Assembly (NCBI GenBank): GCA_035536815.1
Contig: DATLNJ010000082.1
Coordinates: 20,435-84,434, forward strand
From: Frankiaceae bacterium
GTDB taxonomy: Bacteria; Actinomycetota; Actinomycetes; BP-191
Length of the DNA: 64,000 bases
Direction: 5' to 3'
Shown: positions 28,174-48,554 of the stretch, piece by piece
Layout of the letters: every line of letters begins with the position of its first letter
How positions within the stretch are numbered: the stretch's first letter is position 1
Notes under the pieces: generated by a model
Told to the model about the DNA's origin: nothing
The model's database searches: none
Seen by the model: the letters and a program-made list of their open reading frames with translations, nothing else
Made by a program: the position numbers and the translations under genes

Positions 28174-28234
28174 GGTGCGCTCCTCTGCTTCGGGGCCGCC
28201 GGTTGGGGGCGGCTGGAGGAGCGAGAGTCGGCGC

Positions 28235-29654: not shown

Positions 29655-29698
29655 AGGTCAGCAAGCCCAGCAAGCAAGCAGAAGCAGGCAAGGAGTGG

Positions 29699-30079: not shown

Positions 30080-30714
30080 GCCGCGACCCCGTCGTCGTGG
30101 TACCCGGCGACCTCGACGTCGAGGACCGCATCGCCGGTCCCGTCACGTTCCGCATGGCCGCTTGGCTCGCCGCCGCGGTGGCCGGTGCGGCGCTGATCGC
30201 GGCCGGGCGAGGTGCGATCGCGCCGACCGTGCTCGGCTTAGTGCTGCTCGTCGTCGGCGTCGCCGGGGCGTGGTGGCGGCCCGGCGGCCGTCCCGTCGTG
30301 GCGTGGGTCGCGCCGCTGCTCGCCTTCCGCAAGCGCCGCCGCTCCTACCTCGCCGCGACAGCCGCCGAGGAGGACGCGCCGGAGCCGGCCGTGGTCGAGC
30401 CCGAACCGGAGCCGACCGAGCCGCCGCCACCCGACACGGAGCCGATGAGCGAGCCGACGCAGTCCGGTCCACCGTCCAAGCAGCGCAGGTCGGGGCGGGT
30501 CGTCGCCGCTGCCGTCACCAGTGCGGCGGTCGTCACCGTAGCGGCGGTGGTGTTCACCACGTCACGCGGTGGGGAGTCCGCGCCCGCGCCGCACATCGTC
30601 GAGGTCGTCGCGCCGGAGCCGACGGCGAACCCGCCGGTCGTCGTCGTGGTGCCGGTCGACCCGTTCACCGGATGGGAGGTCGGCGATGGCGTCGACCCGT
30701 TCTGCGGATGCTGA
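30076..30714 (+). CDS. PrgI/VirB3-like small membrane protein
   Basis: The internal ATG overlaps the pilin stop (ATGA). PVTFRMAAWLAAAVAGAALIA and LGLVLLVVGVAGAWW form a helix pair followed by a Pro/Glu-rich tail. This organisation is typical upstream of VirB4. Confidence 0.55.
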   Translation: MSRDPVVVVPGDLDVEDRIAGPVTFRMAAWLAAAVAGAALIAAGRGAIAPTVLGLVLLVVGVAGAWWRPGGRPVVAWVAPLLAFRKRRRSYLAATAAEEDAPEPAVVEPEPEPTEPPPPDTEPMSEPTQSGPPSKQRRSGRVVAAAVTSAAVVTVAAVVFTTSRGGESAPAPHIVEVVAPEPTANPPVVVVVPVDPFTGWEVGDGVDPFCGC

Positions 30715-33480: not shown

Positions 33481-35762
33481 CATCGCAGGTTCCGCGCGGG
33501 TGGCTGCGGCTCGTGGTGCCGCGCGACAACACCTCCGCGCCGTTCACCGCCGAGCAGCTCTACGCCGCGATCCACGCCGGCACCGGCCGCCGCGAGAGCA
33601 CGCAGATCCTCCTGGCCGGCTCACCAGGCGAGGTCGGCATCTGGCTGCGGGTCGAGGAGCATCGACTCGACCCGCTCGCCGCGATGGTTCGCGCCACCTA
33701 CCCCGACGCCGAACTCGAACGAGTGCAGCCGCCGTGGCCCCGGCTGACCGCGGGCGCGCACCTCATGGGAGCGCGGTGGTCGCTGGCGCAGGAGGCGGCG
33801 TACCCGATCAAGACGGTGCGAGCGTTCGAGCACTCCGAACCGATGGCGATGACCCTCGGCGCCCTGGCCGAAGCCCGCGAGGGCGAGTTCGGTGTGCTGT
33901 CACTGGTGCTGACCCGCGCGCCGGCGCGGTTCGCGCACCGGTCCCTGGCGTTGCAGCGGGCGCTCGCCACCGGCGGCGACACCGGGCCGCTGTGGCAGCG
34001 CGCCGTGCTGCTGCCCCTCGACGCCGTGACCGCCATCGTGACGTCGCTCGTGTCACCGGCATCGCCGGAAACGATCGCGCCGCAGCCTCGCCTGTTGCTG
34101 GACGCCGACCTGGAGGCGCGGCTGAAGTGGGTGGCCGGCAAGGTCGCACAGCCCGCGTTCGCGGTCACGCTGCGCACCGCATGGCTCGCGCCCACCGCGT
34201 CCCGCGCGGCCGGCGGGCACGCGGGGCTCGCGAGCGCACTCGGGCAGTTCGCTGTCGTCGGGCAGAACGCGTTCACCCCGGGCCGCGAAGACCCGCGCGA
34301 GTGCTGGCGCGGCATCACCGCGGGCGAGGCCGCATCGCGGGAACGGGTGGTGCTCGCCATCGACGAGCTCGCCGGGCTCGTGCACAGCCCCGGCGCCGAC
34401 CTGGTGATCCCGCACCTGCGCCGCACCGGCGCCCGCACCCGCGCCGCCGCCCCGATGAGTGACGGCGGGCTGCACCTCGCCGACACCCTGCACCGCGGCG
34501 AAGCCCACCCCGTCGGGGTCACCGTGCAAGACCTGATGACCCACGCCTACGTCGTCGGCCCGTCCGGCACCGGCAAGACGACGCTGCTCGCCCGGCTCGT
34601 CCTCTCCCTCGCCGAGTCCGGGACAGCCGGGGTCGTGCTTGACCCGCACGGCGACCTCGTGCGGCAGGTACTCGCGAGGCTGCCGGAGGAGCACGCGCAG
34701 CGGGTGGACCTGTTCGACCTGACCGAGCCGGCGACGTTGCCGACGATCAACCCGCTGTGGGTCGACCCGGCTGCGCCCGGCGGCCTCCCGGTCGCCCGTG
34801 CGGTGCGGTCGGCGGCGGTGACGGCGGTGTTCGCGGACCTGTGGGGGCTGCACCGCGCCACCACACCGAACCTGTTGCACTTCCTCGAAGCGGCGCTCGC
34901 CGCGCTCATCACGACCGGCGAGGGCACCCTCGCCGACCTGCCACGGTTCCTGACCGACGGTCCGTTCCGCGCGTCCGTGGTTCGCGCGGCCGGTGACCGG
35001 CGCATTGCCGCGCGGTGGGCCGAGTTCGCGGCGCTTTCGACCGACGACCGCTCCCGCACCGTTCGCGCGATCCTCAACAAGGCCGCCGACTTCGACCGCA
35101 ACCCGATCCTCGCCGGCGTCTTCGGCGACCCCGGCCCCGGGCTGCGTCTCGACCACGTCATGGACAACGGCCGGGTGCTGCTCGTGTCACTGCCGCGCGG
35201 CCTCGTCCCCGAGGGCACCGTCGAGCTGGTCGGGTCGCTGCTCGTCAGCCTGCTCTACCAGGCGGCGCTCGCCCGCGAAGCCCGCCCGGCCGAACAGCGG
35301 CCGCCGGTCGTCGCGGTGATCGACGAGTTCCAGGAGTTCGCCCTCACCACGTTCGCCAAGGTCGTCACCGCCACGCGGAAGTACGGCCTCGGGCTGGTCG
35401 TCGCGAACCAGAACCTCTCCCGCGTACACGCCGTCTCCCCGGACGTGCTGGAGACGCTGCTCGCCAACGTCGCCACGCTCGTCACGTTCCGCACCGCGCC
35501 GGGCGACGCGGAGGTGCTCGCGCCGTTCCTGGCGCCGTTCGACGCCGATGACCTGCTCACCCTCGCGCCGCACGAGTGCTACTGGCGCATCCCCACGGCG
35601 GTCGGACCGCGCCCTGTCGCGGCGCGCACCGCACCGCTACCACCCGCGCTGCGTGCGGGCGACGACCTCGACCGCCTGGTCGCCCGGCTGCGCGCGAGCA
35701 CTCGGGAACGCGGCGGGGGCGGCAGCGACCTTCGTACGGACGACACGAGGCGGATATCATGA
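33477..35762 (+). CDS. type IV coupling protein (VirD4/TraD-like ATPase)
   Basis: ATGA overlap with the upstream gene. Walker A is VVGPSGTGKTTLLA and Walker B is VVAVIDEFQEFA. The C-terminal block is LVVANQNLSRV. Confidence 0.8.
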   Translation: MTSQVPRGWLRLVVPRDNTSAPFTAEQLYAAIHAGTGRRESTQILLAGSPGEVGIWLRVEEHRLDPLAAMVRATYPDAELERVQPPWPRLTAGAHLMGARWSLAQEAAYPIKTVRAFEHSEPMAMTLGALAEAREGEFGVLSLVLTRAPARFAHRSLALQRALATGGDTGPLWQRAVLLPLDAVTAIVTSLVSPASPETIAPQPRLLLDADLEARLKWVAGKVAQPAFAVTLRTAWLAPTASRAAGGHAGLASALGQFAVVGQNAFTPGREDPRECWRGITAGEAASRERVVLAIDELAGLVHSPGADLVIPHLRRTGARTRAAAPMSDGGLHLADTLHRGEAHPVGVTVQDLMTHAYVVGPSGTGKTTLLARLVLSLAESGTAGVVLDPHGDLVRQVLARLPEEHAQRVDLFDLTEPATLPTINPLWVDPAAPGGLPVARAVRSAAVTAVFADLWGLHRATTPNLLHFLEAALAALITTGEGTLADLPRFLTDGPFRASVVRAAGDRRIAARWAEFAALSTDDRSRTVRAILNKAADFDRNPILAGVFGDPGPGLRLDHVMDNGRVLLVSLPRGLVPEGTVELVGSLLVSLLYQAALAREARPAEQRPPVVAVIDEFQEFALTTFAKVVTATRKYGLGLVVANQNLSRVHAVSPDVLETLLANVATLVTFRTAPGDAEVLAPFLAPFDADDLLTLAPHECYWRIPTAVGPRPVAARTAPLPPALRAGDDLDRLVARLRASTRERGGGGSDLRTDDTRRIS

Positions 35763-36499
35763 GCATCGCCCTCACCGACCGCGACCGGCGGCTCATCCAC
35801 GCGGCCTGGTCCCTCGGCGCCGCCACCCACACCACGCTGCGGGCACTCGTCACCCCCGAGACCCGGGCCAACACGCTGCGCCGACGGCTCCGCCTGCTGC
35901 ACACCGAGCGCTACCTCATCCAACGCCAGCACGTCGGACCCGCTGGATGCCTCTGGCTCTACAGCGCCGGGCCACGCGGGCTCCGCTCCACCGATGCCCG
36001 GCCCTGGCGACCGAGCCTCGCGCAGATCGAGCACACCGTCGCCGTCGGCTACACCATCGTCGCGCTCACCCGCCCCGGCTTCGTGCCCGGACTGCACGTG
36101 ACCGGATGGCAAGGCGAAGCCGAGCTCCGCTCCTGGGCGGCGCCCGGCGAGCCGTTCCCCGACGCCCGCATCACATGGGAACACGGCGGCGCATCCGGCG
36201 CGTGGCTCGTCGAGGTCGACCGCGGCACCGAGTCACGCAGCGCGTGGCGGCGCAAGCTCGTCCGATACCTCATCTCGGCCACCACCGAGACCGTGCTCGC
36301 GGTCACCACGACGCAGCGCCGCGCCGCCGGCTTGGCCGCCGTCGCCGCAGACATCGGAGTCGACCTGATCGCCACCACCATCGAGGACGTCGTGCGCGAG
36401 AACCCGGATGTAGTCGACGTGCGGACCGGGACGCGCGTTCCGTTGTCCGAGGCGGGGGTACGACGAGGACGCACCGCCGCCGTGTCCAGCCGTTCGTGA
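35759..36499 (+). CDS. replication-relaxation family protein (putative relaxase-type initiator)
   Basis: ATGA overlap with the coupling protein gene. The N-terminal winged-helix-like segment is LTDRDRRLIHAAWSLGAATHTTLRALV...RRRLRLLHTERYLIQR, and the DARITWE...VEVDRGTE block is typical of this family. Confidence 0.65.
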   Translation: MSIALTDRDRRLIHAAWSLGAATHTTLRALVTPETRANTLRRRLRLLHTERYLIQRQHVGPAGCLWLYSAGPRGLRSTDARPWRPSLAQIEHTVAVGYTIVALTRPGFVPGLHVTGWQGEAELRSWAAPGEPFPDARITWEHGGASGAWLVEVDRGTESRSAWRRKLVRYLISATTETVLAVTTTQRRAAGLAAVAADIGVDLIATTIEDVVRENPDVVDVRTGTRVPLSEAGVRRGRTAAVSSRS

Positions 36500-36725
36500 T
36501 GTCGCCTGCTGGCAGGCCCCGGCTACCACTCGTTGGCGAGGATAGGAAGGCGTGACAGCCGTGTCTCTCCCCGGCGTTCTAGTGCCGTGGCAGGCAACGT
36601 TTGCCTCATTGCTGGCGTGACTCCGAGCCGGCGTTACGGGTCACTCGCTCGAGGCAGATCGACGCCGAACGCGCTTCTCCTGGGCTGATGACACGCATGA
36701 GCGAGGGATCGCGGATAGCGAGGCG

Positions 36726-38228
36726 GTGGAGGATCGGAGAGAGCGCCATCTCGCGAAACGTCAGCTACGGAACGACGAGGGCACCCCGGGCACGAGGACG
36801 AGCGGACCGATACGTTTCGCCCCAGTTCAGGACATGGTGGAGGTGGGATCCGTGGTGTGGACGTATTCGACCCCTGGCCACGTCGATGACGATCTGCCCG
36901 ACAAGGTCAAGTCGGCGTGGCACGTAAAGATTCAGGAGATCGTCCGGGGCCGATTGGCGGAGATCGGGCGGATGAAGAGCGACGGCGGGATCATCCCGTT
37001 CATCGACCCAACTGCCGAAGCCGGGGTCCCCGATGCCCGAGAACCGCTTCCGGTGCGGTGGCCGGGCTTCCCCGCCCAAGTGGCCCTGACCGCGCCCAAC
37101 CCCCAGCAGGCGCTCATCGATGCTGAGCACAAAGGCTTGACCGACCTCCATCCCTCCGCGACCGATGTGGTCGATGAGTCGGGTGCGTCGGTCGACTGCC
37201 GAGTCCGCCACCGACAGGACGAGTATCTCGAGTGGGAGGCCGAGCACGACGCCGACGGGCGGCTGGTGGCGGTCACCTTCGTGGCGGAAGGGTACGACTA
37301 CTGGTCGTTCCTGTTCGAGAAGGACCCGGAGCGGGTGGCGAAGGCCTTCCGGGACTCGACCGGCGATCCCTCGATCACCCCGGATGACCTCGAGGCGCGG
37401 GGCGATCTGTTCGTGGTCCTCGCCGATGGACGCCAGGGACTGATCGTGAAGAAGGGGAAGTACAACCCGCGGCACCAGTTCAACCAGGGGCCGGGCATCC
37501 TGCACCTCTCGCACGACGCGAACTCGCTCGGAGCCGAGTTGAGGCTGGCGATCGACTCCTGTCTCGGCCGTGAAGTCATGCTCGACGGCAAGCTCGTCCT
37601 GCTCGATGGATCCGATCCCAAGCGGTTGATGTGCTGCTCTGAGGGTGGCGCGGTGAACCGGTCCAGCGACCCGATCATCGGCGCCGCAGCGTACGCGGCC
37701 GTCACCGCGCGCGAGCCCAGCCTGTTCACCCTCACCGACCCGGTCGGCCTCTATATCCGGTCCTTCAACCACGAGGCCCTCCGGCCACCCCCGGGTAGCG
37801 ATCCGATCTCTTCACAGGATGTGTGCGACGTGGAGCGTGGCACGGGCCTGCCGGACAACGTCGGGAAGAACGGCGACGAGTCTCGGATCCTCCGCCTCCG
37901 GGTGAGCGCCCCGGAAGGCGCGGGATACGTATTGGGCGAGATGACGGTGGGCCCGGTGCCGCTGACGTCGGGAGCGCAGCTGGCCCAGCTGGTCGACATG
38001 CAGCTGTTCGTCGACATCTGGCCATCCCCGGGACCGGCCCGACGAGTGGCGTGCACGGGCGCGTGCTGCATCGGCGAGGCCCAGATCCTGGTTCCGGTCA
38101 AGCCCACCCAGACCTGCGGGCCCGGACTGGTCGATGCCTTTCCCGAACTCCGCCCGGAACAAGCAACACCCGTCCCTAGTGCGCCCAAGGCGATGGGCCG
38201 TGGCGGACGACGCATAAGGGACCTCTGA
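36726..38228 (+). CDS. hypothetical protein (about 465-500 aa), no family recognised
   Basis: Non-junk composition from about MVEVGSVVW (36834). It has a Cys-rich C-terminus (ACTGACCIGEAQ...TCGPG). Its stop lies 3 nt before the DyP start. Confidence 0.6.
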   Translation: MEDRRERHLAKRQLRNDEGTPGTRTSGPIRFAPVQDMVEVGSVVWTYSTPGHVDDDLPDKVKSAWHVKIQEIVRGRLAEIGRMKSDGGIIPFIDPTAEAGVPDAREPLPVRWPGFPAQVALTAPNPQQALIDAEHKGLTDLHPSATDVVDESGASVDCRVRHRQDEYLEWEAEHDADGRLVAVTFVAEGYDYWSFLFEKDPERVAKAFRDSTGDPSITPDDLEARGDLFVVLADGRQGLIVKKGKYNPRHQFNQGPGILHLSHDANSLGAELRLAIDSCLGREVMLDGKLVLLDGSDPKRLMCCSEGGAVNRSSDPIIGAAAYAAVTAREPSLFTLTDPVGLYIRSFNHEALRPPPGSDPISSQDVCDVERGTGLPDNVGKNGDESRILRLRVSAPEGAGYVLGEMTVGPVPLTSGAQLAQLVDMQLFVDIWPSPGPARRVACTGACCIGEAQILVPVKPTQTCGPGLVDAFPELRPEQATPVPSAPKAMGRGGRRIRDL

Positions 38229-38231
38229 CCG

Positions 38232-39710
38232 ATGACGACCATCCTCCCGGGTGAACCTGAGTTGGAAGTCGACGACATCCAGGCGCACGTGCTCATCGGG
38301 TTCGGGAGCACAGAGCAGGCGATCGGTGCCTTCACCGGCGACGACCTGCCCGCCCTCGGCGCCGTGCTCGCGGACTGGGCGGCCCGGGGACGCTTCAGGT
38401 CCGCCCGCGACCTCATGCCCCGGAAGGGCCTCAACGCCCGCCGCTTCCTTGCCGGCGCCGACATCCGCCACGACCGCACGTCCGGACCCTGGCTCGCGGC
38501 GGCCGTGTCGAAGCGCCTGCTCGCCGCCTGCGGCGTCCCGCACCAGTTCGACGACCTCTGGTTCTCCGCCGAGTCGATGCTGGAGGTCCCGGAGCTGGGC
38601 GATCGGCTGCCAGCCGGCGGCGGCCAGCTCGGCGATGACTGGGAGGTCGGCAACGGCGAGCGGCCGGTCGACGTCCTGCTGGTCGTGGGAGCCGCTCGCG
38701 CCTCGGCGGCCGACGAGATTCTGGACTGGTTCCTCGCGGCGGCGGGACCGACCGCACGCGAGGTCTACCGGGAGGAACTCCTTCCCATCGAGGGCAGCCT
38801 GGAGCATTTCGGGTTCCGGGACGGGATCTCGCAGCCAGGGGTTCTCGGCCTCGTGGGCGGCGAGCCGTTCGAAGCGTTCCGCCAAGAAGATGCCACGACC
38901 TTTCCCGAAGGTCTCCCGGGCCAGGACCTGATCTGGCCGGGTGAGTTCCTGTTCGGCTACCCGTCGCAGGGTCCGGTTCCCCGGGTCCGTGCGCCGATCC
39001 GGAGGCTCGCCGACGCCGACACGGACGCGATCGCGCGGAACGGGTCGTACCTCGTATTCCGCCGGCTCCTCCAGAACGTCGCCGCGTTCCGCGCGTTCTG
39101 CGACGCGAAGGCCGCGGAGATCCGTCACCTCCATCCAGAGGCGGACGGGGACTGGCTTGCCACCCGCTTCGTTGGCCGGACCACCGCTGGAGGGCCGCTC
39201 GTCAGCGAACCGGGTGCGCCGTTCGATCCCGATGCATCGAACGACTTCAGGTTCGATGGCGATCCCATGACCTCGGGCTGCCCGCTGGCTGCGCACATCC
39301 GTAAGGTGAACCCTCGGCGCGGGCCCAGTGATCAGCAGATCAACCCGAGGATCATCCGGCGTGGCGCACCTTTCGGCAGGCAGCACGAACCGGGCGAGAT
39401 GGCGCCGCCCGGGCGCGGCCGGGGCCTGGTGTTCCTCAGCTACCAGCGGAGCATCGACCAGCAGTTCAACACTGTGATCGTCCGCTGGATGAACGATCCG
39501 TCGAACCCCAGCGGCGGCGGCCACGACATGCTCATGGGCCAGCCGGGCCGCGGTGAGTCCCGTCACTTCACGGTGCCTGGCGAGCCCGACGACACCGAGG
39601 TCGTGGCGGGCCCCTCCGAGGCATGGGTACACACGACGGGCGGCGCGTTCTTGTTCGCTCCGTCGATCTCCACGCTCACCCGACTCGGCAACCCCACGGA
39701 GGCACGATGA
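38232..39710 (+). CDS. DyP-type haem peroxidase
   Basis: The GxxDG motif is FGFRDGISQPGV. The proximal-His region is AAHIRKVNPR, followed by IIRRGAPFG and FLSYQRSIDQQFN. These are all characteristic DyP blocks. Confidence 0.85.
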   Translation: MTTILPGEPELEVDDIQAHVLIGFGSTEQAIGAFTGDDLPALGAVLADWAARGRFRSARDLMPRKGLNARRFLAGADIRHDRTSGPWLAAAVSKRLLAACGVPHQFDDLWFSAESMLEVPELGDRLPAGGGQLGDDWEVGNGERPVDVLLVVGAARASAADEILDWFLAAAGPTAREVYREELLPIEGSLEHFGFRDGISQPGVLGLVGGEPFEAFRQEDATTFPEGLPGQDLIWPGEFLFGYPSQGPVPRVRAPIRRLADADTDAIARNGSYLVFRRLLQNVAAFRAFCDAKAAEIRHLHPEADGDWLATRFVGRTTAGGPLVSEPGAPFDPDASNDFRFDGDPMTSGCPLAAHIRKVNPRRGPSDQQINPRIIRRGAPFGRQHEPGEMAPPGRGRGLVFLSYQRSIDQQFNTVIVRWMNDPSNPSGGGHDMLMGQPGRGESRHFTVPGEPDDTEVVAGPSEAWVHTTGGAFLFAPSISTLTRLGNPTEAR

Positions 39711-39925
39711 CCGACGAGGTCATCTACCACGTCATCTACTTCAACCCGGAGGACGCCCCTGGCCGGTACGTTCTGCGGCGCTGGCACCAGGGCGAGAACG
39801 GCACCCAACCGGGCGATAGCGCCGTGTTCGACTCGCTGGAGGACGCGCGCGCCGCGCTGCCTGAAGGCGTCGAGCTGACGAACTTCCCCGAGCCCGATCC
39901 GGTGATCGTCGAGGTGTGGTGGTGA
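39707..39925 (+). CDS. small hypothetical protein (72 aa)
   Basis: Its ATG overlaps the DyP stop (ATGA). The composition is acidic and non-junk (MTDEVIYHVIYFNPEDAPGRYVLRRWHQGENG...). Confidence 0.5.
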   Translation: MTDEVIYHVIYFNPEDAPGRYVLRRWHQGENGTQPGDSAVFDSLEDARAALPEGVELTNFPEPDPVIVEVWW

Positions 39926-39974
39926 GCCGGCCCGGGCCGTCCGTGCGACCCCACGTGAACGACAGGATCACCCC

Positions 39975-41567
39975 ATGACCGCCATTGGTCCGGTACCGCC
40001 CGACACGAGCTGCGGCGCGCTGAGCAACCTCACGGGCCTCGAGCCGACGAAGATTCACCGGTTCATCGTGGGGCGAGACCAGACGCCGGCGATGATGGAC
40101 GTGCGCGAGCTCGGCGACCCGTTCGCCGCGATCGTGCTGTCGTCTGACCCTCCGCCGGCGACGGCTGAGGACGTCATTGCCCGGTTCCGGGCCGCGTTCA
40201 CCGAGGACGACCCGCGGGCGCTGGAGCGGTCCTTCCTCGTCGGGGAGGGTTCCCAGATCCCCGCGGGCGACCTCGACCCTGGCGCCCGGACGGTGCGCTT
40301 CGTTGTCGCGCTCGGCACCGACCCTGTGGACGTGATCCTGAGTGCATTCAGCCCCGACAGCACCTCCGTCGAGGTCATGGCGTGGGACGAGCAGGCGACG
40401 GGGTTCAACTTCTACCGAACGTCGGCGGACGGCGCCTGGGTGTTCGGCGGCAACTCGCGGGACGCGCTCGAGATCGACACGGACGGCAAGGGGCCGTTCG
40501 AGAGCCACACGAGCGGCAGCCTCCTCATGAAGGAGCTGCGCTTCCCGTGGGTCCACTGGCACTCCGACGCGGCCGACGCCCTCGTCGACCCAGCGGTGCT
40601 CCAGCCTGCGATCGCCACGCATCGATGGGCCCGAACCGTAGCCCAGAGCGGGACGCTCGCCGGGGCCGAGATCTGCGAGACGCAAGTGGCGATCCCTTCG
40701 ATCAAACGCTGGACCGACGCTCGGTTCGCGGCGATGCGATCGGGGAGGTTGCCTGTCCGTGCCGGGCGCGTGATGCGGCAGGTCCTTACCTGCCCGACCG
40801 TGAACCTCGTCACCAGCAACACCAAGACCAGGGACGTGACTGCGGCGACGGCGGTCGATCTACCCGCCGCGTTCTTCGTGGACGTCGAGACACTGTGTCG
40901 AGCCGACGGCCTGGGTCTCGCGCCACCTCCAGTGATCGCCGTGTCGGGCGAGTCGTTCCTCGCCCTCGTCGACGAGCTCGACGTCCACCTCGATGACGGC
41001 CGGGGTTTCCACCGAGACGGCGACACCTTCTTCCCGTTTCTCGTGCCCGAGCGGGCGTTCGAGGACATCGCGGCGGCCCTCGCCGGCATCGACTTCCTCT
41101 ACCTCGACCGGCTGCTCGCGGCGCTGCTGCTGGTCGACCTGTCGAGCCCCGTCTTCTCGTCGGAGCGGTCGACTCTCCTTCCTCTGATCGCGTCGGACGA
41201 CGATGTTCCCGAGAGCACCGCGGTCTTCTCCGAGGTGATGGCGGAACGGGTCCGAACCCGAGCACCCGAGCCGGCGAAGGCCGCGTTCCTCGAAGTGTGG
41301 GACGCGGGCGACGCGTGGCGGGACGTGGCGAACAGCCGCCTGGGCGCCTACTACGCCCGGTTGACGGCACGCCTGACCGACGATCCGACGAGCGCCTTCC
41401 GCGACTGGTTCAAGGTGGCCGAATCTCGTCGGCGCCACGCCGCGATCGACCTGCACCTGCCCATCTTCGAGTTTGCCCTCCTCATGTCGCGGTGCAACAT
41501 CCCTGCGAACCAGCGGTTCCAACTCCTCCTGGACGGCAACGTGCGCCAGACCACCATCGACGCCTGA
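39975..41567 (+). CDS. hypothetical protein (530 aa), no family recognised
   Basis: Long ORF with balanced composition on the same strand, 49 nt after the small ORF. The segment VEVMAWDEQATGFNFYRTSADG loosely echoes EYLEWEAEHDADGRLVAVTFVAEGYDYW in the 36726 protein. Confidence 0.65.
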   Translation: MTAIGPVPPDTSCGALSNLTGLEPTKIHRFIVGRDQTPAMMDVRELGDPFAAIVLSSDPPPATAEDVIARFRAAFTEDDPRALERSFLVGEGSQIPAGDLDPGARTVRFVVALGTDPVDVILSAFSPDSTSVEVMAWDEQATGFNFYRTSADGAWVFGGNSRDALEIDTDGKGPFESHTSGSLLMKELRFPWVHWHSDAADALVDPAVLQPAIATHRWARTVAQSGTLAGAEICETQVAIPSIKRWTDARFAAMRSGRLPVRAGRVMRQVLTCPTVNLVTSNTKTRDVTAATAVDLPAAFFVDVETLCRADGLGLAPPPVIAVSGESFLALVDELDVHLDDGRGFHRDGDTFFPFLVPERAFEDIAAALAGIDFLYLDRLLAALLLVDLSSPVFSSERSTLLPLIASDDDVPESTAVFSEVMAERVRTRAPEPAKAAFLEVWDAGDAWRDVANSRLGAYYARLTARLTDDPTSAFRDWFKVAESRRRHAAIDLHLPIFEFALLMSRCNIPANQRFQLLLDGNVRQTTIDA

Positions 41568-41857
41568 CCAAGGACGTCCAAGCTCGTTCTGCTAACGAAT
41601 GGCAGGAGCCGTCCCCGAAGTGCCGTTGTAGGACAGGGCGAACGTTGCCTGACGCGGCACTAGGAGCACCCGATTCGCTCGGGCTCAGACGTTCTCGCGA
41701 ATTAGACGACCATGTCGAGGCGCGCCGGGCCGCGGGCCGCGCATCCTGCGGGGCCGCCCCTCCAAGTTCAAGGGCGCTCGCTTCGCTCGCGTCGCTGCGC
41801 GACCGCCTGCGGCGGCCCTTGATCTTGGAGCCTCTGCGACCCCTCCGGACAGGAAGA

Positions 41858-41884
41858 GCGGGCAGGCAGGAACGGCCTGCCCGC
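41858..41884 (+). terminator. GC-rich hairpin downstream of the DyP operon (possible intrinsic terminator without a U-tract)
   Basis: GCGGGCAGGC-aggaacg-GCCTGCCCGC, a 10-bp perfect stem. It lies ~290 nt after the stop at 41567. Confidence 0.35.
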
Positions 41885-41987
41885 TGGGCGCGCGGCCCGC
41901 GGCGAGGGGCGCGTGGCGGTCGCCCTGGAAACCCCCGTGGTTTGTGGCGCGATGCGTGCTTACTCTCGGAGGTGGGAGGGGTGCGCT

Positions 41988-42674
41988 ATGCGGGTCGTCG
42001 TCGTCGAGGACAAGCCCGCGCTGCGCTCGTATCTCGTGCCGCTGCTGGAGCGCGACGGGTTCGACGTCGAGGCGTTCGGCACCGGGAGCGAGGCACTCGC
42101 GGCGATCCGCGACCGCCGGCCGGACGTCGTCCTGCTCGACGTCGGCCTGCCGGACCTGTCGGGCCTGGACGTGTGCCGCGAGATTCGCCGCCTGCCGGAG
42201 TACGTGCCGGTGGTGATGCTGACCGGATTGGACTCGGCCGAGGACGAGCTGCGCGGCTTCGACGCCAAGGCGGACGACTACGTCACGAAGCCGGTAGTTC
42301 CGGAGCTGCTCGTCGCCCGCATCCGCGCGCTGCTGCGCCGCACGTCTGCGGCGCGCGACGGTCACGTCGTGGCACTCGGGTCGGTCGAGGTCGACCTGCG
42401 CGCGCGTGAGGCACGCCGCGACGGCGCGCCCATCCCGTTGGGCGCGAAGGAGTTCGCGCTCCTCGCGTTCCTGATCGAGCACCCCGGCCAGGTGTTCGGC
42501 AAGACGCAACTGCTCAACCATGTGTGGGGACCGGACTACGACGGCGACACCCACGCCGTCGAGAGCCGCATGTCCCGCCTGCGAGTAGCGATCGAAGACA
42601 ACCCGAACCAGCCCGCGCACCTGCACAGCCGCCGCGGCGTCGGCTACTACCTCACGCTGGAGCCGAAGCCATGA
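41988..42674 (+). CDS. OmpR/PhoB-family response regulator
   Basis: The receiver is MRVVVVEDKPALR...DVVLLDVGLPDLSG...KADDYVTKP. The winged-helix output is EFALLAFLIEHPGQVF...VESRMSRLR. GGAGG-rich RBS upstream. Confidence 0.9.
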   Translation: MRVVVVEDKPALRSYLVPLLERDGFDVEAFGTGSEALAAIRDRRPDVVLLDVGLPDLSGLDVCREIRRLPEYVPVVMLTGLDSAEDELRGFDAKADDYVTKPVVPELLVARIRALLRRTSAARDGHVVALGSVEVDLRAREARRDGAPIPLGAKEFALLAFLIEHPGQVFGKTQLLNHVWGPDYDGDTHAVESRMSRLRVAIEDNPNQPAHLHSRRGVGYYLTLEPKP

Positions 42675-43657
42675 CCCTCGCGCTGCTCGTGACCGTGTGG
42701 CTGCTGCTGGCGGCGGTGCCGTTCGCGTGGTGGCTGACGACGCGTCGGCGGGTAGACGTGTGGCGGTCGCTTCCCGTCCCGGCGGCGTTGCTCGACGCCG
42801 ACCGGCGGGTGCGGGACCAAGCGGGGCCGGTGTCCGAGGTCACGTTCGACGTCTCGGCCGGGCTACCCGCACGCGGGCACGTGATCCGCGGTCGCTCGTC
42901 CGACGGCACTCCCATCGCGTTGGCGGGCGTCCGCGGTGGTGCGCTCGCCGTCGCGTTGCCGCGCGACCCGGTCGCCGACCGGCGCGACCACGTGCTCGCC
43001 GAGCTGGGCAGCCGGCTCGCGCACGACATCAACACCCCGCTCGACGCGCTGCGCGGGCACCTCGACCTCATCGCGCACGAGCCGATCTCCGACCCGGCCC
43101 GCGACTCCGTTCGCACCTGCCAGCGCGAGCTCGCCCGGTTGCAGACCACCGCGCAAGACCTCCTCGCGTTCACCCGGCTCCGCGCCGGCGGCGGCCGCCG
43201 CGTGCAGCACCTTGCGGGGGCGCTCGCCGAGGAGGCCGTCGCCGCGCTGCTCGACCGCGCCGACGCGCTCGGCGCGACGCTGACCGTGGACGTGCCGAGC
43301 GAGCGCGTCGTCGTCGATGTCGCGGAGGGCGACCTGCTCCGCGCGCTGCGGAACCTTGTCGGCAACGCGCTCACGCACGGTCTCGGCGAGCGCCGCGACG
43401 TCCAGGTGACGGTCAGCGCCGACACCGACACGGTGACGTTCGCCGTTGCCGACTCCGGACCCGGCCTCACCTCAGACGACCTCGCCCGGCTCTCGCAGCC
43501 GCTCGTCCGCGGCGACGGCGTGACCACCACCGGCAGCGGACTCGGGCTTGCCATCGTCAACGAGGTGCTCGCCGCCCACGGCTCCGCGCTCGACGTCGCA
43601 CCGCGCGACGGCGGCGGCACTGTCCTTTCCTTCGTGCTGCCGCGGGTCGCGCCGTGA
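42671..43657 (+). CDS. sensor histidine kinase
   Basis: ATGA overlap with the response regulator. One N-terminal TM segment, H-box LGSRLAHDINTPLDAL, N box LRNLVGNALTHG and G box DSGPGL...GSGLGLAIV. Confidence 0.85.
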   Translation: MTLALLVTVWLLLAAVPFAWWLTTRRRVDVWRSLPVPAALLDADRRVRDQAGPVSEVTFDVSAGLPARGHVIRGRSSDGTPIALAGVRGGALAVALPRDPVADRRDHVLAELGSRLAHDINTPLDALRGHLDLIAHEPISDPARDSVRTCQRELARLQTTAQDLLAFTRLRAGGGRRVQHLAGALAEEAVAALLDRADALGATLTVDVPSERVVVDVAEGDLLRALRNLVGNALTHGLGERRDVQVTVSADTDTVTFAVADSGPGLTSDDLARLSQPLVRGDGVTTTGSGLGLAIVNEVLAAHGSALDVAPRDGGGTVLSFVLPRVAP

Positions 43658-44265
43658 CTCCCGCCGCCCGCGGCGTCGGCGTGCCGCGCGCGGTCGTTGC
43701 GGCCTGGGCGCTTTCCACCCTGCTCGGCGGAACCGCGGTCGGCGTCGCCGCCACCCGACCGGAACCGCAGCCGCGCACGTTGAGCCCACGCACCGCCGCC
43801 CGCTACCTCGCCGACCTCGTGCCCGCACCCCGTGAGGACGTCCGCGTCAACGGCATCTACGGCTCCGGGCACGCCGGCGCCTGGCAGTTCGTCGCGCACG
43901 TCACGTGGCGCGACGCGAACGGCGCCATCAACGGCGGCGTCACCAACCTGCCCATCCTCGCCGGCAGCGCGCCGTGGGACAGCCCCGTCGACTCGTCTAC
44001 GTTCCCGCACGAGCACGAGATCGGCTGGACCCTCGACCAACTCGACGCCGTTCTTCGCAAGGCCCGCGACGTCGATGCCGAACTCGCGATGGTCGAACTC
44101 GAAGTCACCGCTGCGCGGGACTCCGTGATCGCCTGCCACGCTCGGCGCGCAGACGTGCTCGGGCACTGCGTCGAACGCAACCGGCGAGGCCGGGAACTAC
44201 GCCGGTTCGACGCCGCGCTCACCGACAACCCACTCGGACAGGCCACCGCGGTACAGCGCGCGTAG
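43654..44265 (+). CDS. hypothetical exported/membrane-anchored protein
   Basis: Its GTG overlaps the kinase stop (GTGA). The N-terminal hydrophobic segment is VVAAWALSTLLGGTAVGVAA. The remainder has balanced composition. Confidence 0.5.
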   Translation: MTPAARGVGVPRAVVAAWALSTLLGGTAVGVAATRPEPQPRTLSPRTAARYLADLVPAPREDVRVNGIYGSGHAGAWQFVAHVTWRDANGAINGGVTNLPILAGSAPWDSPVDSSTFPHEHEIGWTLDQLDAVLRKARDVDAELAMVELEVTAARDSVIACHARRADVLGHCVERNRRGRELRRFDAALTDNPLGQATAVQRA

Positions 44266-44330
44266 GCGCCGGTCCTGTGGACGACGCAGACCATCGGTAG
44301 CCGCTATCCACAGATTCGAAATCGACCCAC

Positions 44331-44612
44331 CTACCGCCGGTCGTTGGGTGGGAGACTCTTACTGTGAGTAAGAGCACCGTCGAAGTCGAAGAGCCAAGCA
44401 GGCGGGACACGCAGCGCGTCGGCTATCGCGAACACGACGTCCAGTGTCGGGTTGCGCTGGCCGTGCTCGATGCCGGACACGTAGCCGCCCGTGACACCCG
44501 CTCGCGCGGCTACGTCGAGTTGGCTGATCCCGGCTGCTTCCCGAAGGTCGCGAACTCGACGGCCGAACCGGACGCGAGGGTGCTCTCGCTTGTCCGGGGT
44601 TTCTCGCGACAC
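44331..44612 (-). CDS. XRE-family HTH transcriptional regulator
   Basis: FGRRVRDLREAAGISQLDVAARAGVTGGYVSGIEHGQRNPTLDVVFAIADAL is a canonical Cro/C1-type HTH. Confidence 0.8.
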   Translation of the reverse strand: MSRETPDKREHPRVRFGRRVRDLREAAGISQLDVAARAGVTGGYVSGIEHGQRNPTLDVVFAIADALRVPPAWLFDFDGALTHSKSLPPNDRR

Positions 44613-44658
44613 TCGCCCACTTTATGGCCGCTCCGCCACCCAACCTCAAGGAGGCTCT

Positions 44659-45009
44659 ATGACTGACCTTTCGCCCACGCTCGTAGACGACAGCAACCGC
44701 ACCTACCTCGTGCTCCGGGTTGCAGTCGCGCACGATCACGCCGAGGCAGCCGCGGCGACGGGGACGCGCTGGTGCGCCGACGTCGCCGATGCCGCCAGCC
44801 CACTCGCCGGCCTCTACACGTTCGCGGACTCTCTGCCCGCGGTCCGCAACGCGATCGCGACGCTCGCGTGGACGGCAGTCGCCGCGGGCGAGCTGCGCCC
44901 GTACGGCATCGACGCGGACAACGTCGCCGGCATCCACGTCGTCACCACGACCTGCGACGTGTACGAGGCGGCGTGGCTCGCCACCGCCGTCGCCAACGAC
45001 GCGGCCTGA
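44659..45009 (+). CDS. hypothetical protein (116 aa)
   Basis: ATG is preceded by AAGGAGG (44648-44654). It is divergent from the XRE gene. Confidence 0.5.
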   Translation: MTDLSPTLVDDSNRTYLVLRVAVAHDHAEAAAATGTRWCADVADAASPLAGLYTFADSLPAVRNAIATLAWTAVAAGELRPYGIDADNVAGIHVVTTTCDVYEAAWLATAVANDAA

Positions 45010-45023
45010 GAGGGGGGACACCC

Positions 45024-45536
45024 ATGACCACCAAGGAAGAACGTCGCGCTGTCATGCTCGCCGAGGTACGCGCCCGCCGTCGCGGACAGGCCTCGCCGTC
45101 GGAACCGGCAGGCACGTGGGCGGTCCGCGGCGCTTGCATCGGGCAACCGTCGTTGTTCGAGGACCCGAAGCGGACAGCGGAAGCACTCGCGATTTGTGCC
45201 ACCTGCCCGGTCCTCAACGAGTGCTACGAGTGGGCGCTCCGCAACGCGGTCGACGGCGTAGCAGGTGGCATGACGAGCGAAGCGCGAACCGCGTGGCGGA
45301 AGGCGAACAAGATCGCCGAGCCCGTCGTATCGGCCGACGCGTTCCTGCCGGGCGAGGTCGCGGCCGCGGACCGCACGACGTCTCGCATGCGATGCGATGC
45401 GGTCCTCCTCGCCGTTGCCGCGTGGACGGAGAACGGCGAGTCAGCACGGGCCATCGGGCGGCGCCTCGGTGTCACGTCCCGCAGCGTCGTTCGCTACCGG
45501 AACGTGTGCCGCGAGCGGGCGATCCTCGCCTCCTGA
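45024..45536 (+). CDS. WhiB-like Fe-S regulator fused to a C-terminal HTH
   Basis: The four-Cys WhiB pattern is GACIGQPSLFEDP...AICATCPVLNECYEWAL. The C-terminal HTH is ESARAIGRRLGVTSRSVVRYR. Confidence 0.8.
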   Translation: MTTKEERRAVMLAEVRARRRGQASPSEPAGTWAVRGACIGQPSLFEDPKRTAEALAICATCPVLNECYEWALRNAVDGVAGGMTSEARTAWRKANKIAEPVVSADAFLPGEVAAADRTTSRMRCDAVLLAVAAWTENGESARAIGRRLGVTSRSVVRYRNVCRERAILAS

Positions 45537-45688
45537 GTGACGAGCGCGGTACCGCAGCTCAGCGCCGCGCTCGTCACCGGGCCGGGTGTCCGGCTGGGTC
45601 GAGGCCGAGGTGCTGCGGCTACGCGCGGCGCATCCGCGGTGGGGCCCCGGGGGATCAGCTAGCAGAGCGGGCACGTGTCGTCGCATCC

Positions 45689-47902
45689 CTATCCGGGAGG
45701 AATCACCGTCCCCGCCCAATGAGCTCGAAGGATAGCGTGCTGGAAACTATAGCGTCCTCCCGACCGAACCAGGAGCGACAGGCTCACGACATAGTTCAAG
45801 AAGTCGACAACATCTTCGGGAAGCGGGGACTCGCGCATCATGACCCGCTGCCAGTACGCCAGACGTATGTGGAGGGCAAAGATATAGACCCGAATGATCA
45901 AGATTCCAGTCAGGGCACCGACCGCTGCCGCCGCAATGACCCACCACCACGTTCGGAACAACGGGCCAGCGGGGGCGGCATCGATATGGTTCTCGAACTT
46001 CGTCCAGAGATCCACGGTAAGATTGCTGAACTTACCCGATAGGTCCGTACGTGGAGTGACCTTTCGAGGAACCACGGTAGAGAACTGAGCCACCAACGTG
46101 CAACCGACCCCGAGAAAGGCATATATCGCGCCTACGACTAACGGAAGGATCACGTCTTCCATCGAGATGGTAAAGTGTGCAGCGGACCACCAGGTAGCTC
46201 GCGGGTCGACCTCCGGAAAGTCTGCATCCTCCTGCTTTACCTTCAGGGTGGCTGAATTGAGGATCATCCACAGGGTCAGCGCAGCTACGGTCATCAGAAG
46301 CAGCCAGGGCATTGTGCGGAGCAATGCAGAATGCCTGTCCTCTGGAACATTGCGAGGGACGAAGACGCGTGCCATGTAATAGTAGAAGGCTAGGGCGATC
46401 AGTGCGGCCACAACTGTCCGAATTGCAATCCTGACCCTGTCGGCGGATAACTTCTTCCACGACCATCCTAGGGTGTCCACCTCGGTTGACTCGTACAGTT
46501 CCTCGAACTTAGTCGATTCCGCCAGAACAATCGTCAGCAGGGATATGCTGGCGGTAAAGCCTCCGAGGATGGGGCCCCCGATGATATAACCGAGCCCGAA
46601 ACCGAGGCCGGCCGCCCCAACTCCTAGGACTAGACCGAATATCCGCTTTTTCAGGTCGCCTCTTCTGGTTACCCCGAGATGAGTTGGGGACACGATTCCG
46701 GTATAGAAGCTGGAGCCGTTGAGTTCCAAGATCCGGGCTATCCACGCCAGGCATCGCATCACTAGGTCAGAAGAATACTTCAAACTATTGCCACGCGTAT
46801 GCAGCACGTCTGATATATATGCGTCGATTAACCGCTCCTGGTGCCGACCGGCGGGAAGAGCCTCCGCAGGAGGCTCGGTCCAGTCCGTTCGAATCGCAAC
46901 CGACAAGAAGAATGGGTTTCGCAACATCTCTCGTATTGTGGGATCACGCGAGAGGCCGGATCGCCTACCGTTCTTCGCCAGGATGGCGTTGACTACCCGA
47001 TCCTCCAAGGGGAGGACCTCGACGATCGGCATCCCCAACTCCCGTTCGGAACCCTCCCTCGTGGGGCGGCTGGCAATGGCGATAGCCGTCAATCCATAAC
47101 CTTGGCGGAATTGTCTTAGCTCCCTCACGCAATCGGCCCTACGCTTCGCGTCCGAGACTTCATCCAGACCATCGAATATCAAGAACAGGCGGTTCTGTTC
47201 AAGCAAAGCGATAGTTGCCTCTGGGGGGATCGACGCTTGGTGCTTGAGCGAGCGGGCTAGCCACTGGTCCATAGGCGAGCCATCCCATTCCACAAGGTCG
47301 AGCCAAACTAGAGCAGTACGAGAATCGTGACTCTTCCGGCTTTCGGCCTGAGACGACCGCTGGGCCAGCTCAAGGAGGAGCCGGGTCTTCCCGCTTCCCG
47401 GATCGCCGGTGATCAAGACTGCTCGAAGAAGCTCGCCTCCGAAGAGCGAGTACAACTCCCGACTGTCATATTGATTGGGTTCGTGAACTCTTTGATAGGG
47501 TCCTCTGACCGGTACGTACACCTTGATCCGGACTGGAAAGCGAGAGCGCGCCGTCTCGCGGAACCCTGCGATAGCACTGCGATATCGGACCTCCTTGAGC
47601 GTCTTCTGTCCGTAGCGCTCGATCTGCTCCTGAGCGGTCGGCAGACTCGCCGAGTGCTTCGCCTCCATGCTGTCTCTGGCGCGAGTTACTATAACGGTGG
47701 AAATTATGAATACCGGCAGCAGCGCCACCCATGGGTTCCGCCGAATGGGTGCCGGAAGAGAATCGGCAACTGCGCTCTCAAGGATAGCGAGCAGCGTGAG
47801 GTTGAGTGCGACGGCAACTGCCGAGAGCCTCCTCTTCGTAGAAGGCCTCATCGAGTCACCCCTCCCTAACTCGGATTCGAACGTTGAGCGTTCCCGCACC
47901 AC
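45689..47902 (-). CDS. membrane-embedded NACHT/STAND P-loop NTPase
   Basis: Walker A is LITGDPGSGKTRLLLEL and Walker B is LFLIFDGLDEV (NACHT-type). Two N-terminal and at least five C-terminal hydrophobic helices are present. The region is clearly AT-richer than its surroundings. The start is 47902 or the ATG at 47851. Confidence 0.8.
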   Translation of the reverse strand: MVRERSTFESELGRGDSMRPSTKRRLSAVAVALNLTLLAILESAVADSLPAPIRRNPWVALLPVFIISTVIVTRARDSMEAKHSASLPTAQEQIERYGQKTLKEVRYRSAIAGFRETARSRFPVRIKVYVPVRGPYQRVHEPNQYDSRELYSLFGGELLRAVLITGDPGSGKTRLLLELAQRSSQAESRKSHDSRTALVWLDLVEWDGSPMDQWLARSLKHQASIPPEATIALLEQNRLFLIFDGLDEVSDAKRRADCVRELRQFRQGYGLTAIAIASRPTREGSERELGMPIVEVLPLEDRVVNAILAKNGRRSGLSRDPTIREMLRNPFFLSVAIRTDWTEPPAEALPAGRHQERLIDAYISDVLHTRGNSLKYSSDLVMRCLAWIARILELNGSSFYTGIVSPTHLGVTRRGDLKKRIFGLVLGVGAAGLGFGLGYIIGGPILGGFTASISLLTIVLAESTKFEELYESTEVDTLGWSWKKLSADRVRIAIRTVVAALIALAFYYYMARVFVPRNVPEDRHSALLRTMPWLLLMTVAALTLWMILNSATLKVKQEDADFPEVDPRATWWSAAHFTISMEDVILPLVVGAIYAFLGVGCTLVAQFSTVVPRKVTPRTDLSGKFSNLTVDLWTKFENHIDAAPAGPLFRTWWWVIAAAAVGALTGILIIRVYIFALHIRLAYWQRVMMRESPLPEDVVDFLNYVVSLSLLVRSGGRYSFQHAILRAHWAGTVIPPG

Positions 47903-48348
47903 CGCGAAAGCCTACCCGTATCGGATCCGGCGACGAACGTGCTCCGTGGATGGCCGAATGGGAAGAGGTCGATCCCGTTGCCGACATCAGTCGCCAGGTG
48001 TCCGGCACGGCCACGACGAGGTGCTCCGCCGTATGCCGGCCAGCCAGCCAGTGCACCTTGGGGTGGGTGGACGGCCATCGTCAGGGGCCGTGTGCGCGCC
48101 GACGCGCAATCGTCGCCTCACCCGCGGGAATCCGCGGCTGGAGGTGACGCGCCACGAACCGCTGTCGCGCTGCCCGAGGTGCTGGTCGTCGTGGCCACTC
48201 TGGCTGGGTGGCGAGCAGCGGCGCGTTATCGCACGCGGGCGTTGGCCGGCACCGGTCGCGAGAGCCGAGACGTGCCGCGAGGTGCAGCCATGCGGCATGT
48301 AACGCAGTCGACCACTGCTGCCCGACATCGAGTTCGGGGCGTCCACAT

Positions 48349-48368
48349 CTTCTAACGGACTTCTAACG
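48349..48368 (+). promoter_or_regulatory. tandem CTTCTAACG repeats; candidate integrase arm-type sites (attR side)
   Basis: CTTCTAACG-GA-CTTCTAACG lies ~115 nt inside attR. It has the same motif and orientation as 14524-14544. Confidence 0.45.
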
Positions 48369-48483
48369 AACGGGCCGATCCGTGGGATGATGGCCTGGCC
48401 GCGACGTCACGGACGGACCGCGCGACCAGCACCACCGAGCACGGAGAAGATCAAAAGAGACTGACTGACGCACTCGGCGACGG

Positions 48484-48554
48484 CTACGGATCAGAAGGTT
48501 GGGGGTTCGAGTCCCTCCGAGCGCGCTCACAAAGTCGCAGGTCAGAGGCTTGCA
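48484..48554 (+). repeat. attR: 71-bp perfect direct repeat of the tRNA-Arg 3' half and trailer
   Basis: Identical to 14412-14482. There is no 5' half of a tRNA upstream of it. Confidence 0.85.

Follow-up and report, generated by a model that had tools for sequence, protein, structure and literature searches.

The systems closest to the gene described here are the bacterial NACHT proteins and their animal counterparts, the NLRs. The gene lies at 45689..47902 on the minus strand (-) of a 64,000-nucleotide stretch of a Frankiaceae bacterium contig (DATLNJ010000082.1, positions 20,435 to 84,434), referred to below as the window, and encodes a NACHT NTPase with predicted membrane helices. To our knowledge, the bacterial and animal NACHT proteins that have been studied mechanistically are all soluble and sense cytoplasmic ligands. 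The validated bNACHT proteins (bNACHT01, bNACHT25 and others) and the Avs proteins follow the same NACHT/STAND switch logic as the window protein, but they differ from it in being soluble, in sensing through short C-terminal domains, repeats or partner chaperones, and in using nucleases and similar enzymes as effectors. Mutation of the histidine in the winged-helix domain (WHD) hyperactivates bNACHT25 (Kibby et al., bioRxiv 10.1101/2022.07.19.500537), and this histidine is conserved in the window protein as H722. The same study defines 25 NACHT clades, in a Table S1 that carries no marks for transmembrane (TM) segments, and its Supplementary Discussion already lists a class of TM-inserted NACHT proteins, category 4 of that study. 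This class is known from bioinformatic listing alone.

The window protein is a divergent, effector-less and recently transferred member of the catalogued TM-inserted class. It shares with the listed proteins multiple TM helices placed before the end of the NACHT module as well as the terminal V-G-G-G-Y-x-F-x-H and L-x-W-S-W loop motifs, and the distribution of its relatives is also centred on Chloroflexota, Cyanobacteria and Actinomycetota. It differs from them in its low similarity to the nearest relative (at most 33% identity over the nucleotide-binding domain (NBD) and 24% over the full length), in having a two-TM hairpin and no enzymatic or adaptor domain at its N-terminus, in the degeneracy of the PNQG loop, and in being the unameliorated cargo of an integrative conjugative element (ICE).

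The NACHT identity of the protein is established by both sequence and predicted fold. The Pfam NACHT nucleotide-binding domain (PF05729) is matched at aa 160-308 (46979..47425, -) with 36.3 bits against a cut-off of 26.7, covering profile positions 1-160 of 167. Translation confirms the two motifs on which the sequence-only reading had based its NACHT assignment, namely Walker A, GDPGSGKT (aa 166-173; 47384..47407, -), in which K172 is invariant in family alignments, and Walker B, LIFDGLDEV (aa 241-249; 47156..47182, -), in which D244, D247 and E248 are invariant. They fit the patterns GxxxxGK[ST] for Walker A and hhhhDGhDE for a NACHT-type Walker B. The family alignment also places an invariant R279 at the sensor-1 position within the motif ASRPT (47060..47074, -), and the GxP motif of the NACHT module is intact. 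The catalytic and latch residues are thus all present: K172, D244/D247/E248, R279, P330 and H722.

A structural model was generated with AlphaFold2 from a 20-sequence alignment, with a mean pLDDT of 63; the confidence is about 80-89 for aa 160-400 and 71-85 for aa 700-737. A Foldseek comparison of this model with the PDB returned NOD2 (5irm, E = 2.4e-8), NLRC4 (4kxf) and NLRP3 (7alv) as the first matches, with a probability of 1.00 and E-values from 2e-8 to 8e-6 across the three, in agreement with the NACHT NTPase assignment. About half of the model is a membrane region of low confidence, which keeps the TM-scores of these matches low (0.25-0.30 of the whole query). The animal NLRs share with the window protein the order NBD-HD1-WHD and the histidine latch, at a sequence identity of only about 15%. 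In NLRs, however, the WHD is uninterrupted, and HD2 and leucine-rich repeats come after it, whereas in the window protein a membrane bundle appears to divide the WHD and the chain terminates with this domain. When the PDB was searched by sequence, with either the protein or the family profile as query, matches were confined to the P-loop level and no relative of solved structure was found. An AlphaFold2 model of a splice from which the TM region had been deleted (aa 120-412 joined to 688-737, no alignment) reached a pLDDT of 38.6 and was uninformative.

The six-TM bundle is predicted to be an insertion inside the WHD of the NACHT module, just upstream of H722, and the extreme C-terminus (aa 691-737) is predicted to complete this domain. 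The first half of the putative WHD spans aa ~351-412 (46667..46852, -), comprises helices at 351-369 and 378-395 and a strand at 399-400, and ends at the basic segment RRGDLKKR. The second half, aa 691-737 (45692..45832, -), consists of a helix (698-707), a beta-hairpin (711-720) and the motif GGRYSFQH, which puts H722 (45737-45739) at the position of the ADP-contacting histidine of NLRs. The AlphaFold2 model contains these elements as a short strand at 399-400 before the insert and, after it, the helix 698-707, the hairpin 711-714/717-720 and a further helix 723-731, the elements after the insert at pLDDT 71-85. The last TM helix of the model is continuous (647-691) and leads directly into the tail. 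The number of TM helices in the bundle is even, and both WHD halves would therefore return to the cytoplasm.

The same arrangement recurs among relatives. A first homology search recovered 16 non-self proteins with 25-32% identity, all of which consist of a NACHT module, a long glycine-rich hydrophobic region and then FL(D/N)xAxxRxLLxxVGGGYxFxHRLLLEHFA at the C-terminus. The C-terminus of the window protein, FLNYVVSLSLLVRSGGRYSFQHAILRAHWAG, aligns with the family consensus FLDxAxxRILLxxVGGGYxFxHRLLLExFA. For comparison, the motif that closes the WHD in NACHT proteins lacking TM helices reads GQYGFMHLGFQEYLAA in P0022 and DTFAFMHRTFLEYFAAL in P0024. A 44-column hidden Markov model (HMM) of the tail was searched against four TM-less NACHT proteins and 1,000 shuffled decoys; three of the four ranked among the top four and the other ranked eighth. 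The alignments displayed for three of these proteins fall on the F-x-H motif of the WHD (P0024 889-905, P0022 632-647, P0023 474-513).

A second line of evidence comes from splicing. When the insert is removed from 138 family members, hhalign aligns the resulting profile with the TM-less NACHTs colinearly over 304 columns (probability 99.9%, E = 4.8e-34), from Walker A across the splice point to the histidine. In controls with the tail omitted or reversed, the alignment ends after 223 columns, at template column 254 rather than 347. Consistently, GGRYSFQH(722)AILRAHWAG matches the canonical WHD motif, F-x-H...F/Y-A, only once the insert has been removed. The tail HMM, the spliced alignment with its control and the AlphaFold2 tail together argue that the membrane bundle is a WHD insertion and not a C-terminal sensor. 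The rival arrangement, a complete NACHT module followed by an independent C-terminal membrane domain that serves as sensor or anchor, gains from the facts that the Pfam NACHT match ends at aa 308 with nothing after the TM region and that the TM region is poorly modelled. The Pfam model, however, covers the nucleotide-binding domain only, and the gain from 223 to 304 columns requires a tail that bears the WHD histidine motif. That motif also lies close to the C-terminus in most relatives, and TM regions 'inserted into the NACHT module' are mentioned by Kibby et al., so that an appended membrane domain is regarded as improbable. The NTPase had earlier been described as sandwiched between membrane domains, with helices taking the place of the usual C-terminal sensor; the membrane-embedded nature of the protein stands, while the helices split the WHD instead of replacing the sensor.

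TM segments were called by Kyte-Doolittle hydropathy only. Eight hydrophobic segments were found (aa 25-47, 57-76, 420-443, 440-463, 489-516, 526-553, 577-611 and 651-683), all of which coincide with long AlphaFold2 helices, giving two plus six, consistent with the two N-terminal and at least five C-terminal helices of the sequence-only reading. The first two form an N-terminal hydrophobic hairpin (47675..47830, -) by hydropathy and in the AlphaFold2 model. The first segment could be a cleavable signal peptide, cut between AVA and D, instead of a TM helix, which would leave the remaining topology unchanged. The hairpin is homologous to an N-terminal two-TM region in 26 of 149 relatives (about 17%), and the HMMER alignment reaches into it for several of them. 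The remaining six segments make up the insertion (aa 413-690; 45833..46666, -), delimited by hydropathy, AlphaFold2 and the family alignment; it contains the family loop motif LGWSW (aa 478-482), and H678/R680 end its last helix. Assuming that the NACHT module is cytoplasmic, the loop that holds LGWSW (aa 464-488) is expected to be cytoplasmic and the 42-residue loop 609-650 would face the outside.

The window protein belongs to a large and divergent family. An exhaustive HMMER scan over 1.84 billion cluster representatives (50%-identity clusters) returned 5,220 matches at E <= 1e-3, 2,803 at E <= 1e-10 and 5 at E <= 1e-30 (including the protein itself), with the closest non-self match 33% identical over the NBD. 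Among the 149 non-self relatives that scored best, about 130 share this layout, with at least three TM-like segments separating Walker A from a GGxYxFxH-like motif that usually lies 18-60 residues from the C-terminus; together with the listing of the class by Kibby et al., this shows that the layout is not an unusual one-off. The nearest full-length relative is P0026, a protein of 708 aa that aligns colinearly along 678 residues with 24% identity (E = 6e-37). A profile search of a 5.8-billion-protein collection contributed little, at least 18 proteins. Sorted by genome, the relatives come mostly from Chloroflexota, Cyanobacteria and Ktedonobacteria, with some in Actinomycetota (Actinoplanes, Acrocarpospora), Chlorobi and Gammaproteobacteria and one in a methanogen. 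The motif set of the family comprises L-x-W-S-W, H-x-x-L-R at the end of the last TM helix, P-W-N-Y and V-G-G-G-Y-x-F-x-H. The window protein carries LGWSW (478-482), H678/R680, P695 and GGRYSFQH; P-N-Q-G is not kept. A homologue on the chromosome of Actinoplanes sp. CA-015351 (L043:9779-11992) also has 737 aa, by coincidence; it is 28% identical over the NACHT part, shares the terminal motif (YRFIHLLIRDHLAA) and, unlike the window copy, has a G+C content (0.678) close to that of its flanks (0.693).

The N-terminal regions of the family are variable. Short N-termini like that of the window protein occur in 99 of 168 members. Among the longer regions, 57 of 69 were scanned for domains, revealing TIR (12), protein kinase (6), EAD7 (5), BTAD (4), CHAT (3), DUF4062 (3), HTH (3), trypsin (1) and nucleotide cyclase (1) domains. 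Such a combination, in which the NACHT and membrane core stays the same and the N-terminal effector or adaptor is exchanged, is typical of STAND conflict systems. The N-terminal effectors vary while the membrane insert is constant, which implies that the insert is the sensing part.

The base composition of the gene sets it apart from its surroundings, as had been judged by eye in the sequence-only reading. The open reading frame (ORF) has a G+C content of 57.6%, compared with a mean of 71.4% (sd 2.7) over the other non-overlapping 2.2-kb stretches of the window (z = -5.1), and is the lowest-G+C stretch of this size. The low-G+C block (45700..48000) is coextensive with the gene and its leader, with values of 0.545-0.655 per 200 nt inside it and about 0.70-0.75 on both sides, and the dip has sharp edges at about 45.7 and 48.0 kb. 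The G+C content at third codon positions (GC3) is 0.66 in the NACHT gene and 0.72-0.97 in 22 other genes, and its synonymous-codon fit to host genes (-1.73) is the worst of 23, with the others between -0.60 and -1.34. The low G+C is not a by-product of a hydrophobic protein, since GC3 is uniformly low (0.62-0.69) across the N-terminal, NACHT, membrane and C-terminal parts and the codon fit is the poorest observed.

This deviation is not a property of the family. In 44 homologous loci, the difference in G+C between gene and flanks has a median of -1.8 points (range -13.6 to +4.7), compared with -13.8 points in the window. The family is usually compositionally at home, and the window copy is the exception. 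The exceptional gap supports a recent import of the gene into the ICE from a donor of lower G+C, in line with the acquisition that had been proposed; no relative closer than 33% identity is known. A search for repeats or insertion sequence remnants that might bracket the low-G+C block as an insertion scar found only short, chance-level matches.

The window derives from a soil metagenome, and chimerism was checked for this reason. A 3,627-nt Logan contig from an independent assembly of a public soil-metagenome run spans 44884..48510, and thus both G+C transitions, with 0 mismatches; its depth is 26.6, compared with 25-27 in the flanking contigs. The linkage of the NACHT gene to its flanks is therefore real. 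The origin of the contig and the compositional deviation of the gene might otherwise have suggested an artefact or a dead gene, either a chimeric assembly or a decaying pseudogene. Given the junction-spanning contig at flank depth, an intact ORF that is colinear end to end with the 708-aa relative, and the full set of catalytic and latch residues, such an origin is judged highly improbable. Run X2, a second soil metagenome from another study, contains 236 nt of the gene with a single mismatch, and these two soil metagenomes are the only runs in which the gene sequence was found.

The reading frame itself is intact, as the sequence-only reading had it. The longest ORF (45689..47902, -; GTG start, stop codon 45689-45691) encodes 737 aa, has 0 internal stops and is the only long frame there with a sensible product. 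The more likely true start is the ATG at 47851, which gives 720 aa. This codon is preceded by AGGGAGGGG with a spacer of 7 nt; the Shine-Dalgarno-like element read from the sequence is GGGAGGGG (47859..47866, -), 7 nt 5' of the ATG. Both forms are present among public proteins, the 737-aa form from a 132,648-nt NCBI contig and the 720-aa form from a sequencing-run contig. Of ten proteins looked up by exact sequence, eight gave no match, probably owing to differences between the start codons chosen and those annotated.

The NACHT gene is carried by an ICE of 34,143 bp (14412..48554). In its sequence, a tRNA gene is associated with direct repeats, and both an integrase and genes of a type IV secretion system (T4SS) are present. 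An exact 71-bp repeat, with no extension on either side, forms attL (14412..14482, +), within and after an intact tRNA-Arg(ACG) gene (14381-14454; the single tRNA gene), and attR (48484..48554, +), which consists of the 3' 43 nt of the tRNA-Arg plus 28 nt. A tyrosine integrase gene (14570..15790, +) adjoins attL, and the interior encodes a T4SS pilin (29699-30079), a VirB4-like ATPase (30569-32590) and a type IV coupling protein (33264-35762) together with a histidine kinase, an XRE regulator and a WhiB-like protein. The unannotated ORFs at 36.7-42.4 kb of the window include no recognisable relaxase. The ICE has a G+C content of 69.4%, compared with 72.7% in its flanks. The NACHT gene is its last gene before attR, about 580 bp inside the element. 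The intervening region (47903-48483; 580 bp from the NACHT start to attR) has a G+C content of up to 0.73 and is probably a non-coding leader and att-flanking region, with ORFs that lack a coding-type GC3 pattern. The designation of the gene as terminal ICE cargo, made from the sequence alone, is thus a fair description. On the same grounds of GC3 pattern, the ORFs at 47.9-48.48 kb and a 92-aa ORF just downstream of the NACHT gene were dismissed as genes.

The left end of the ICE is rich in defence genes, including a TIR protein and a complete type III CBASS (19525-23228, -). The CBASS consists of a 4TM effector (19525-20529, -; Pfam S_4TM, E = 1.6e-67), a CD-NTase (20433-21548, -; PADLOC cyclase, E = 2e-112), a HORMA protein (21838-22314, -) and a TRIP13 ATPase (22311-23228, -). 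The TIR protein, which also contains a DUF1883 domain, is encoded at 16300-17307 (-) and matches the ThsB and PDC-S66 models.

We give an even chance to the reading that the NACHT gene encodes a TM-inserted STAND/NACHT switch, polytopic in the inner membrane, that works as set out here; the protein probably couples a signal at the membrane to a response in defence. By analogy with NLR and bNACHT biology, the resting protein would be ADP-bound and closed, latched by the WHD histidine H722. A change within or across the membrane, sensed by the inserted bundle, would displace the WHD; candidate signals are a phage membrane protein, envelope damage and, in the course of infection or DNA entry, loss of membrane potential. 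Opening of the latch would allow ATP to replace ADP and the NACHT modules to oligomerise. In relatives, the output would pass to the variable N-terminal TIR, protein kinase, CHAT/caspase-like, EAD adaptor, BTAD or HTH domains. In the window protein, the eight TM helices of each protomer might themselves cluster and perturb the membrane, leading to abortive infection; this speculative output is the most economical one because the window copy has no N-terminal effector domain. We infer both the defence function and the membrane-disrupting output. A more specific version of the switch, in which the split WHD provides direct mechanical coupling, is unlikely but worth stating. A phage membrane protein, lipid perturbation or a collapse of the membrane potential might set the bundle in motion, and this movement would detach the histidine latch from ADP; the protein would act as a single-chain sensor of membrane integrity. 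In effector-less forms with a two-TM hairpin, like the window protein, an oligomeric NACHT ring with eight TM helices per protomer would form a lethal pore, a bacterial, membrane-embedded and self-sufficient counterpart of a 'resistosome'.

The 4TM and 2TM effectors of CBASS and the SLATT-type effectors offer a functional analogy for such an output, as small TM modules that damage the membrane once an upstream switch has fired. No sequence relationship to these effectors was detected, and in the window protein the TM modules are fused to the switch. One 4TM effector of the CBASS type is carried on the same ICE.

Several observations weigh against the proposed defence switch. The packing of aa 691-737 on the NBD is deduced from sequence and secondary structure only, the membrane region of the AlphaFold2 model has a pLDDT of 29-64, and the step in which the TM bundle acts as the effector is speculative. 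The loop 609-650, expected to face outward, is the counterpart of the main clade's PNQG loop, whose motif has degenerated in the window protein (TPRTDLSG). The positive-inside bias is weak (17 against 12 K+R), so that the proposed orientation rests on the need of a NACHT module for cytoplasmic ATP. In a PADLOC search the best match of the protein, to mad8, covers the P-loop only and is not significant (E = 0.0028), and among NCBIfam models EruA scores 12.8 bits against a cut-off of 1000, with no validated NACHT or Avs model matched. Some relatives have DNA-binding N-termini (BTAD or HTH), which suggest transcriptional rather than suicidal outputs, and a crude survey of 37 genomes demonstrated no defence-island enrichment around the homologues. 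The searchable literature yielded no experimental study of any TM-inserted NACHT protein.

The genomic neighbourhoods of the homologues are diverse. Individual loci place a homologue next to SIR2_2, HD and PIN genes, next to an EAD1/EAD7 protein and ParE, next to a Dnd-associated gene and two further NACHT genes, next to a SEFIR fragment with transposase and integrase remnants, or among ordinary genes with an LRR-Roc-COR protein and Uma2. The survey covered 144 ORFs in the 37 genomes and found 181 Pfam families, each in at most 7 ORFs. The most recurrent families are kinase (7), TPR (4), Uma2 (3) and NB-ARC (3), and the PADLOC matches are generic Ser/Thr kinases only. No conserved partner gene or operon and no conserved housekeeping operon was found around the homologues in these genomes, so that the housekeeping context that would have counted against the sequence-only reading is absent. 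Its claim of an anti-phage role is left as an inference, favoured by the CBASS and TIR genes on the same ICE but with no match to a validated model and no clear defence-island enrichment. In locus L085 (6980-7996 and 8001-10955), the TM-inserted NACHT gene (P0018) is directly preceded, with a 4-nt gap, by the gene of an AAA_16 protein with EAD1/EAD7, and a ParE toxin gene lies upstream; the NACHT and AAA_16 pair could be a two-gene, adaptor-coupled variant of the system.

The protein may instead be a non-immune transducer of membrane signals, such as envelope stress, lipid or an extracellular cue, that acts in physiology or development and hitch-hikes on the ICE. The BTAD (4 of 57) and HTH (3 of 57) N-termini resemble those of transcription regulators, the homologues are mostly compositionally resident (the median of -1.8 G+C points), they lie dispersed among metabolic and other genes, where no enrichment for defence was detected, and the family is concentrated in filamentous or multicellular lineages (Chloroflexota, Cyanobacteria, Actinomycetota). 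Most of the recognisable N-terminal domains, however, are conflict effectors or adaptors (TIR, CHAT, EAD7, DUF4062, trypsin). The window copy itself is foreign cargo on an ICE with CBASS and TIR genes and lacks any DNA-binding or enzymatic output domain, which leaves the non-immune role a minority possibility.

A function in maintenance or transfer of the ICE, such as entry exclusion or control of the mating channel, would fit a membrane protein at the edge of a T4SS-type ICE that is encoded beside WhiB-like and XRE regulators. This is considered very unlikely, as the GC3 of the gene is 0.66 compared with 0.83-0.91 in the ICE core and the homologues are not beside conjugation genes in the loci examined; we know of no NACHT protein that is part of the described T4SS machinery. 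The presence of TM helices within a P-loop NTPase protein also recalls the KAP family, in which, as Aravind and colleagues are said to have described in 2004, TM segments are inserted in the NTPase domain. In both cases the TM segments lie within the enzyme and are not appended to it, but the NTPase clade and the insertion point differ, and the likeness is superficial. The window protein has no match to the KAP_NTPase model (PF07693) while NACHT scores above threshold, and its insert lies in the WHD, ~240 residues past Walker A, after Walker B and HD1 and outside the P-loop core; membership of the KAP family has almost nothing to recommend it.

The TM-inserted family is large: its members fall into thousands of clusters at 50% identity, most of them from Chloroflexota, Cyanobacteria and Actinomycetota. 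An insertion inside the WHD just before the histidine latch would offer a concrete and testable route from a membrane event to nucleotide exchange. The window copy is a convenient entry point as a single 2.2-kb gene. It contains no extra effector domain, and any phenotype must therefore stem from the NACHT and membrane parts; its position on a mobile element with other defence cargo suggests that it functions without host-specific partners. A finding that the protein is a non-immune sensor would still define the role of an abundant family.

Two regulatory genes lie beside the NACHT gene. One is an XRE-type HTH gene (44331-44612, -), the other a WhiB-like gene whose product has a long extension at its N-terminus (44772-45536, +; only 170 aa in the public call). 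Both have intermediate GC3 values of 0.72-0.74, and they may be regulators of the ICE or may have arrived with the cargo. Between the convergent WhiB-like (stop 45536) and NACHT (stop 45689) genes lies a perfect 13-bp inverted repeat with a 15-nt loop (45537..45577), possibly a bidirectional terminator shared by both; a simple terminator scan did not call this hairpin, which has no T-run.

Other observations concern the remainder of the element. The assembly depth in the two runs (X1, X2) rises to ~1,143 over the tRNA/att segment 48340-48606, compared with ~27 elsewhere, because the tRNA sequence is common to many genomes in the sample. No contig joining the attL side to the attR side, as expected of an empty site or excised circle, was seen in runs X1 and X2. 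Inside the ICE, a 492-aa ORF (38232-39710, +) has only a weak match to the C-terminal domain of Dyp-peroxidase, and the histidine kinase gene (42524-43657, +) is an orphan without an adjacent response regulator. The DUF1883-TIR gene at the left end is followed by a gene for an HTH protein and two ORFs without a family match (16300-19334, -). This segment forms a second patch of lower G+C, with GC3 values of 0.72-0.78, and is probably another cargo module adjoining the integrase.

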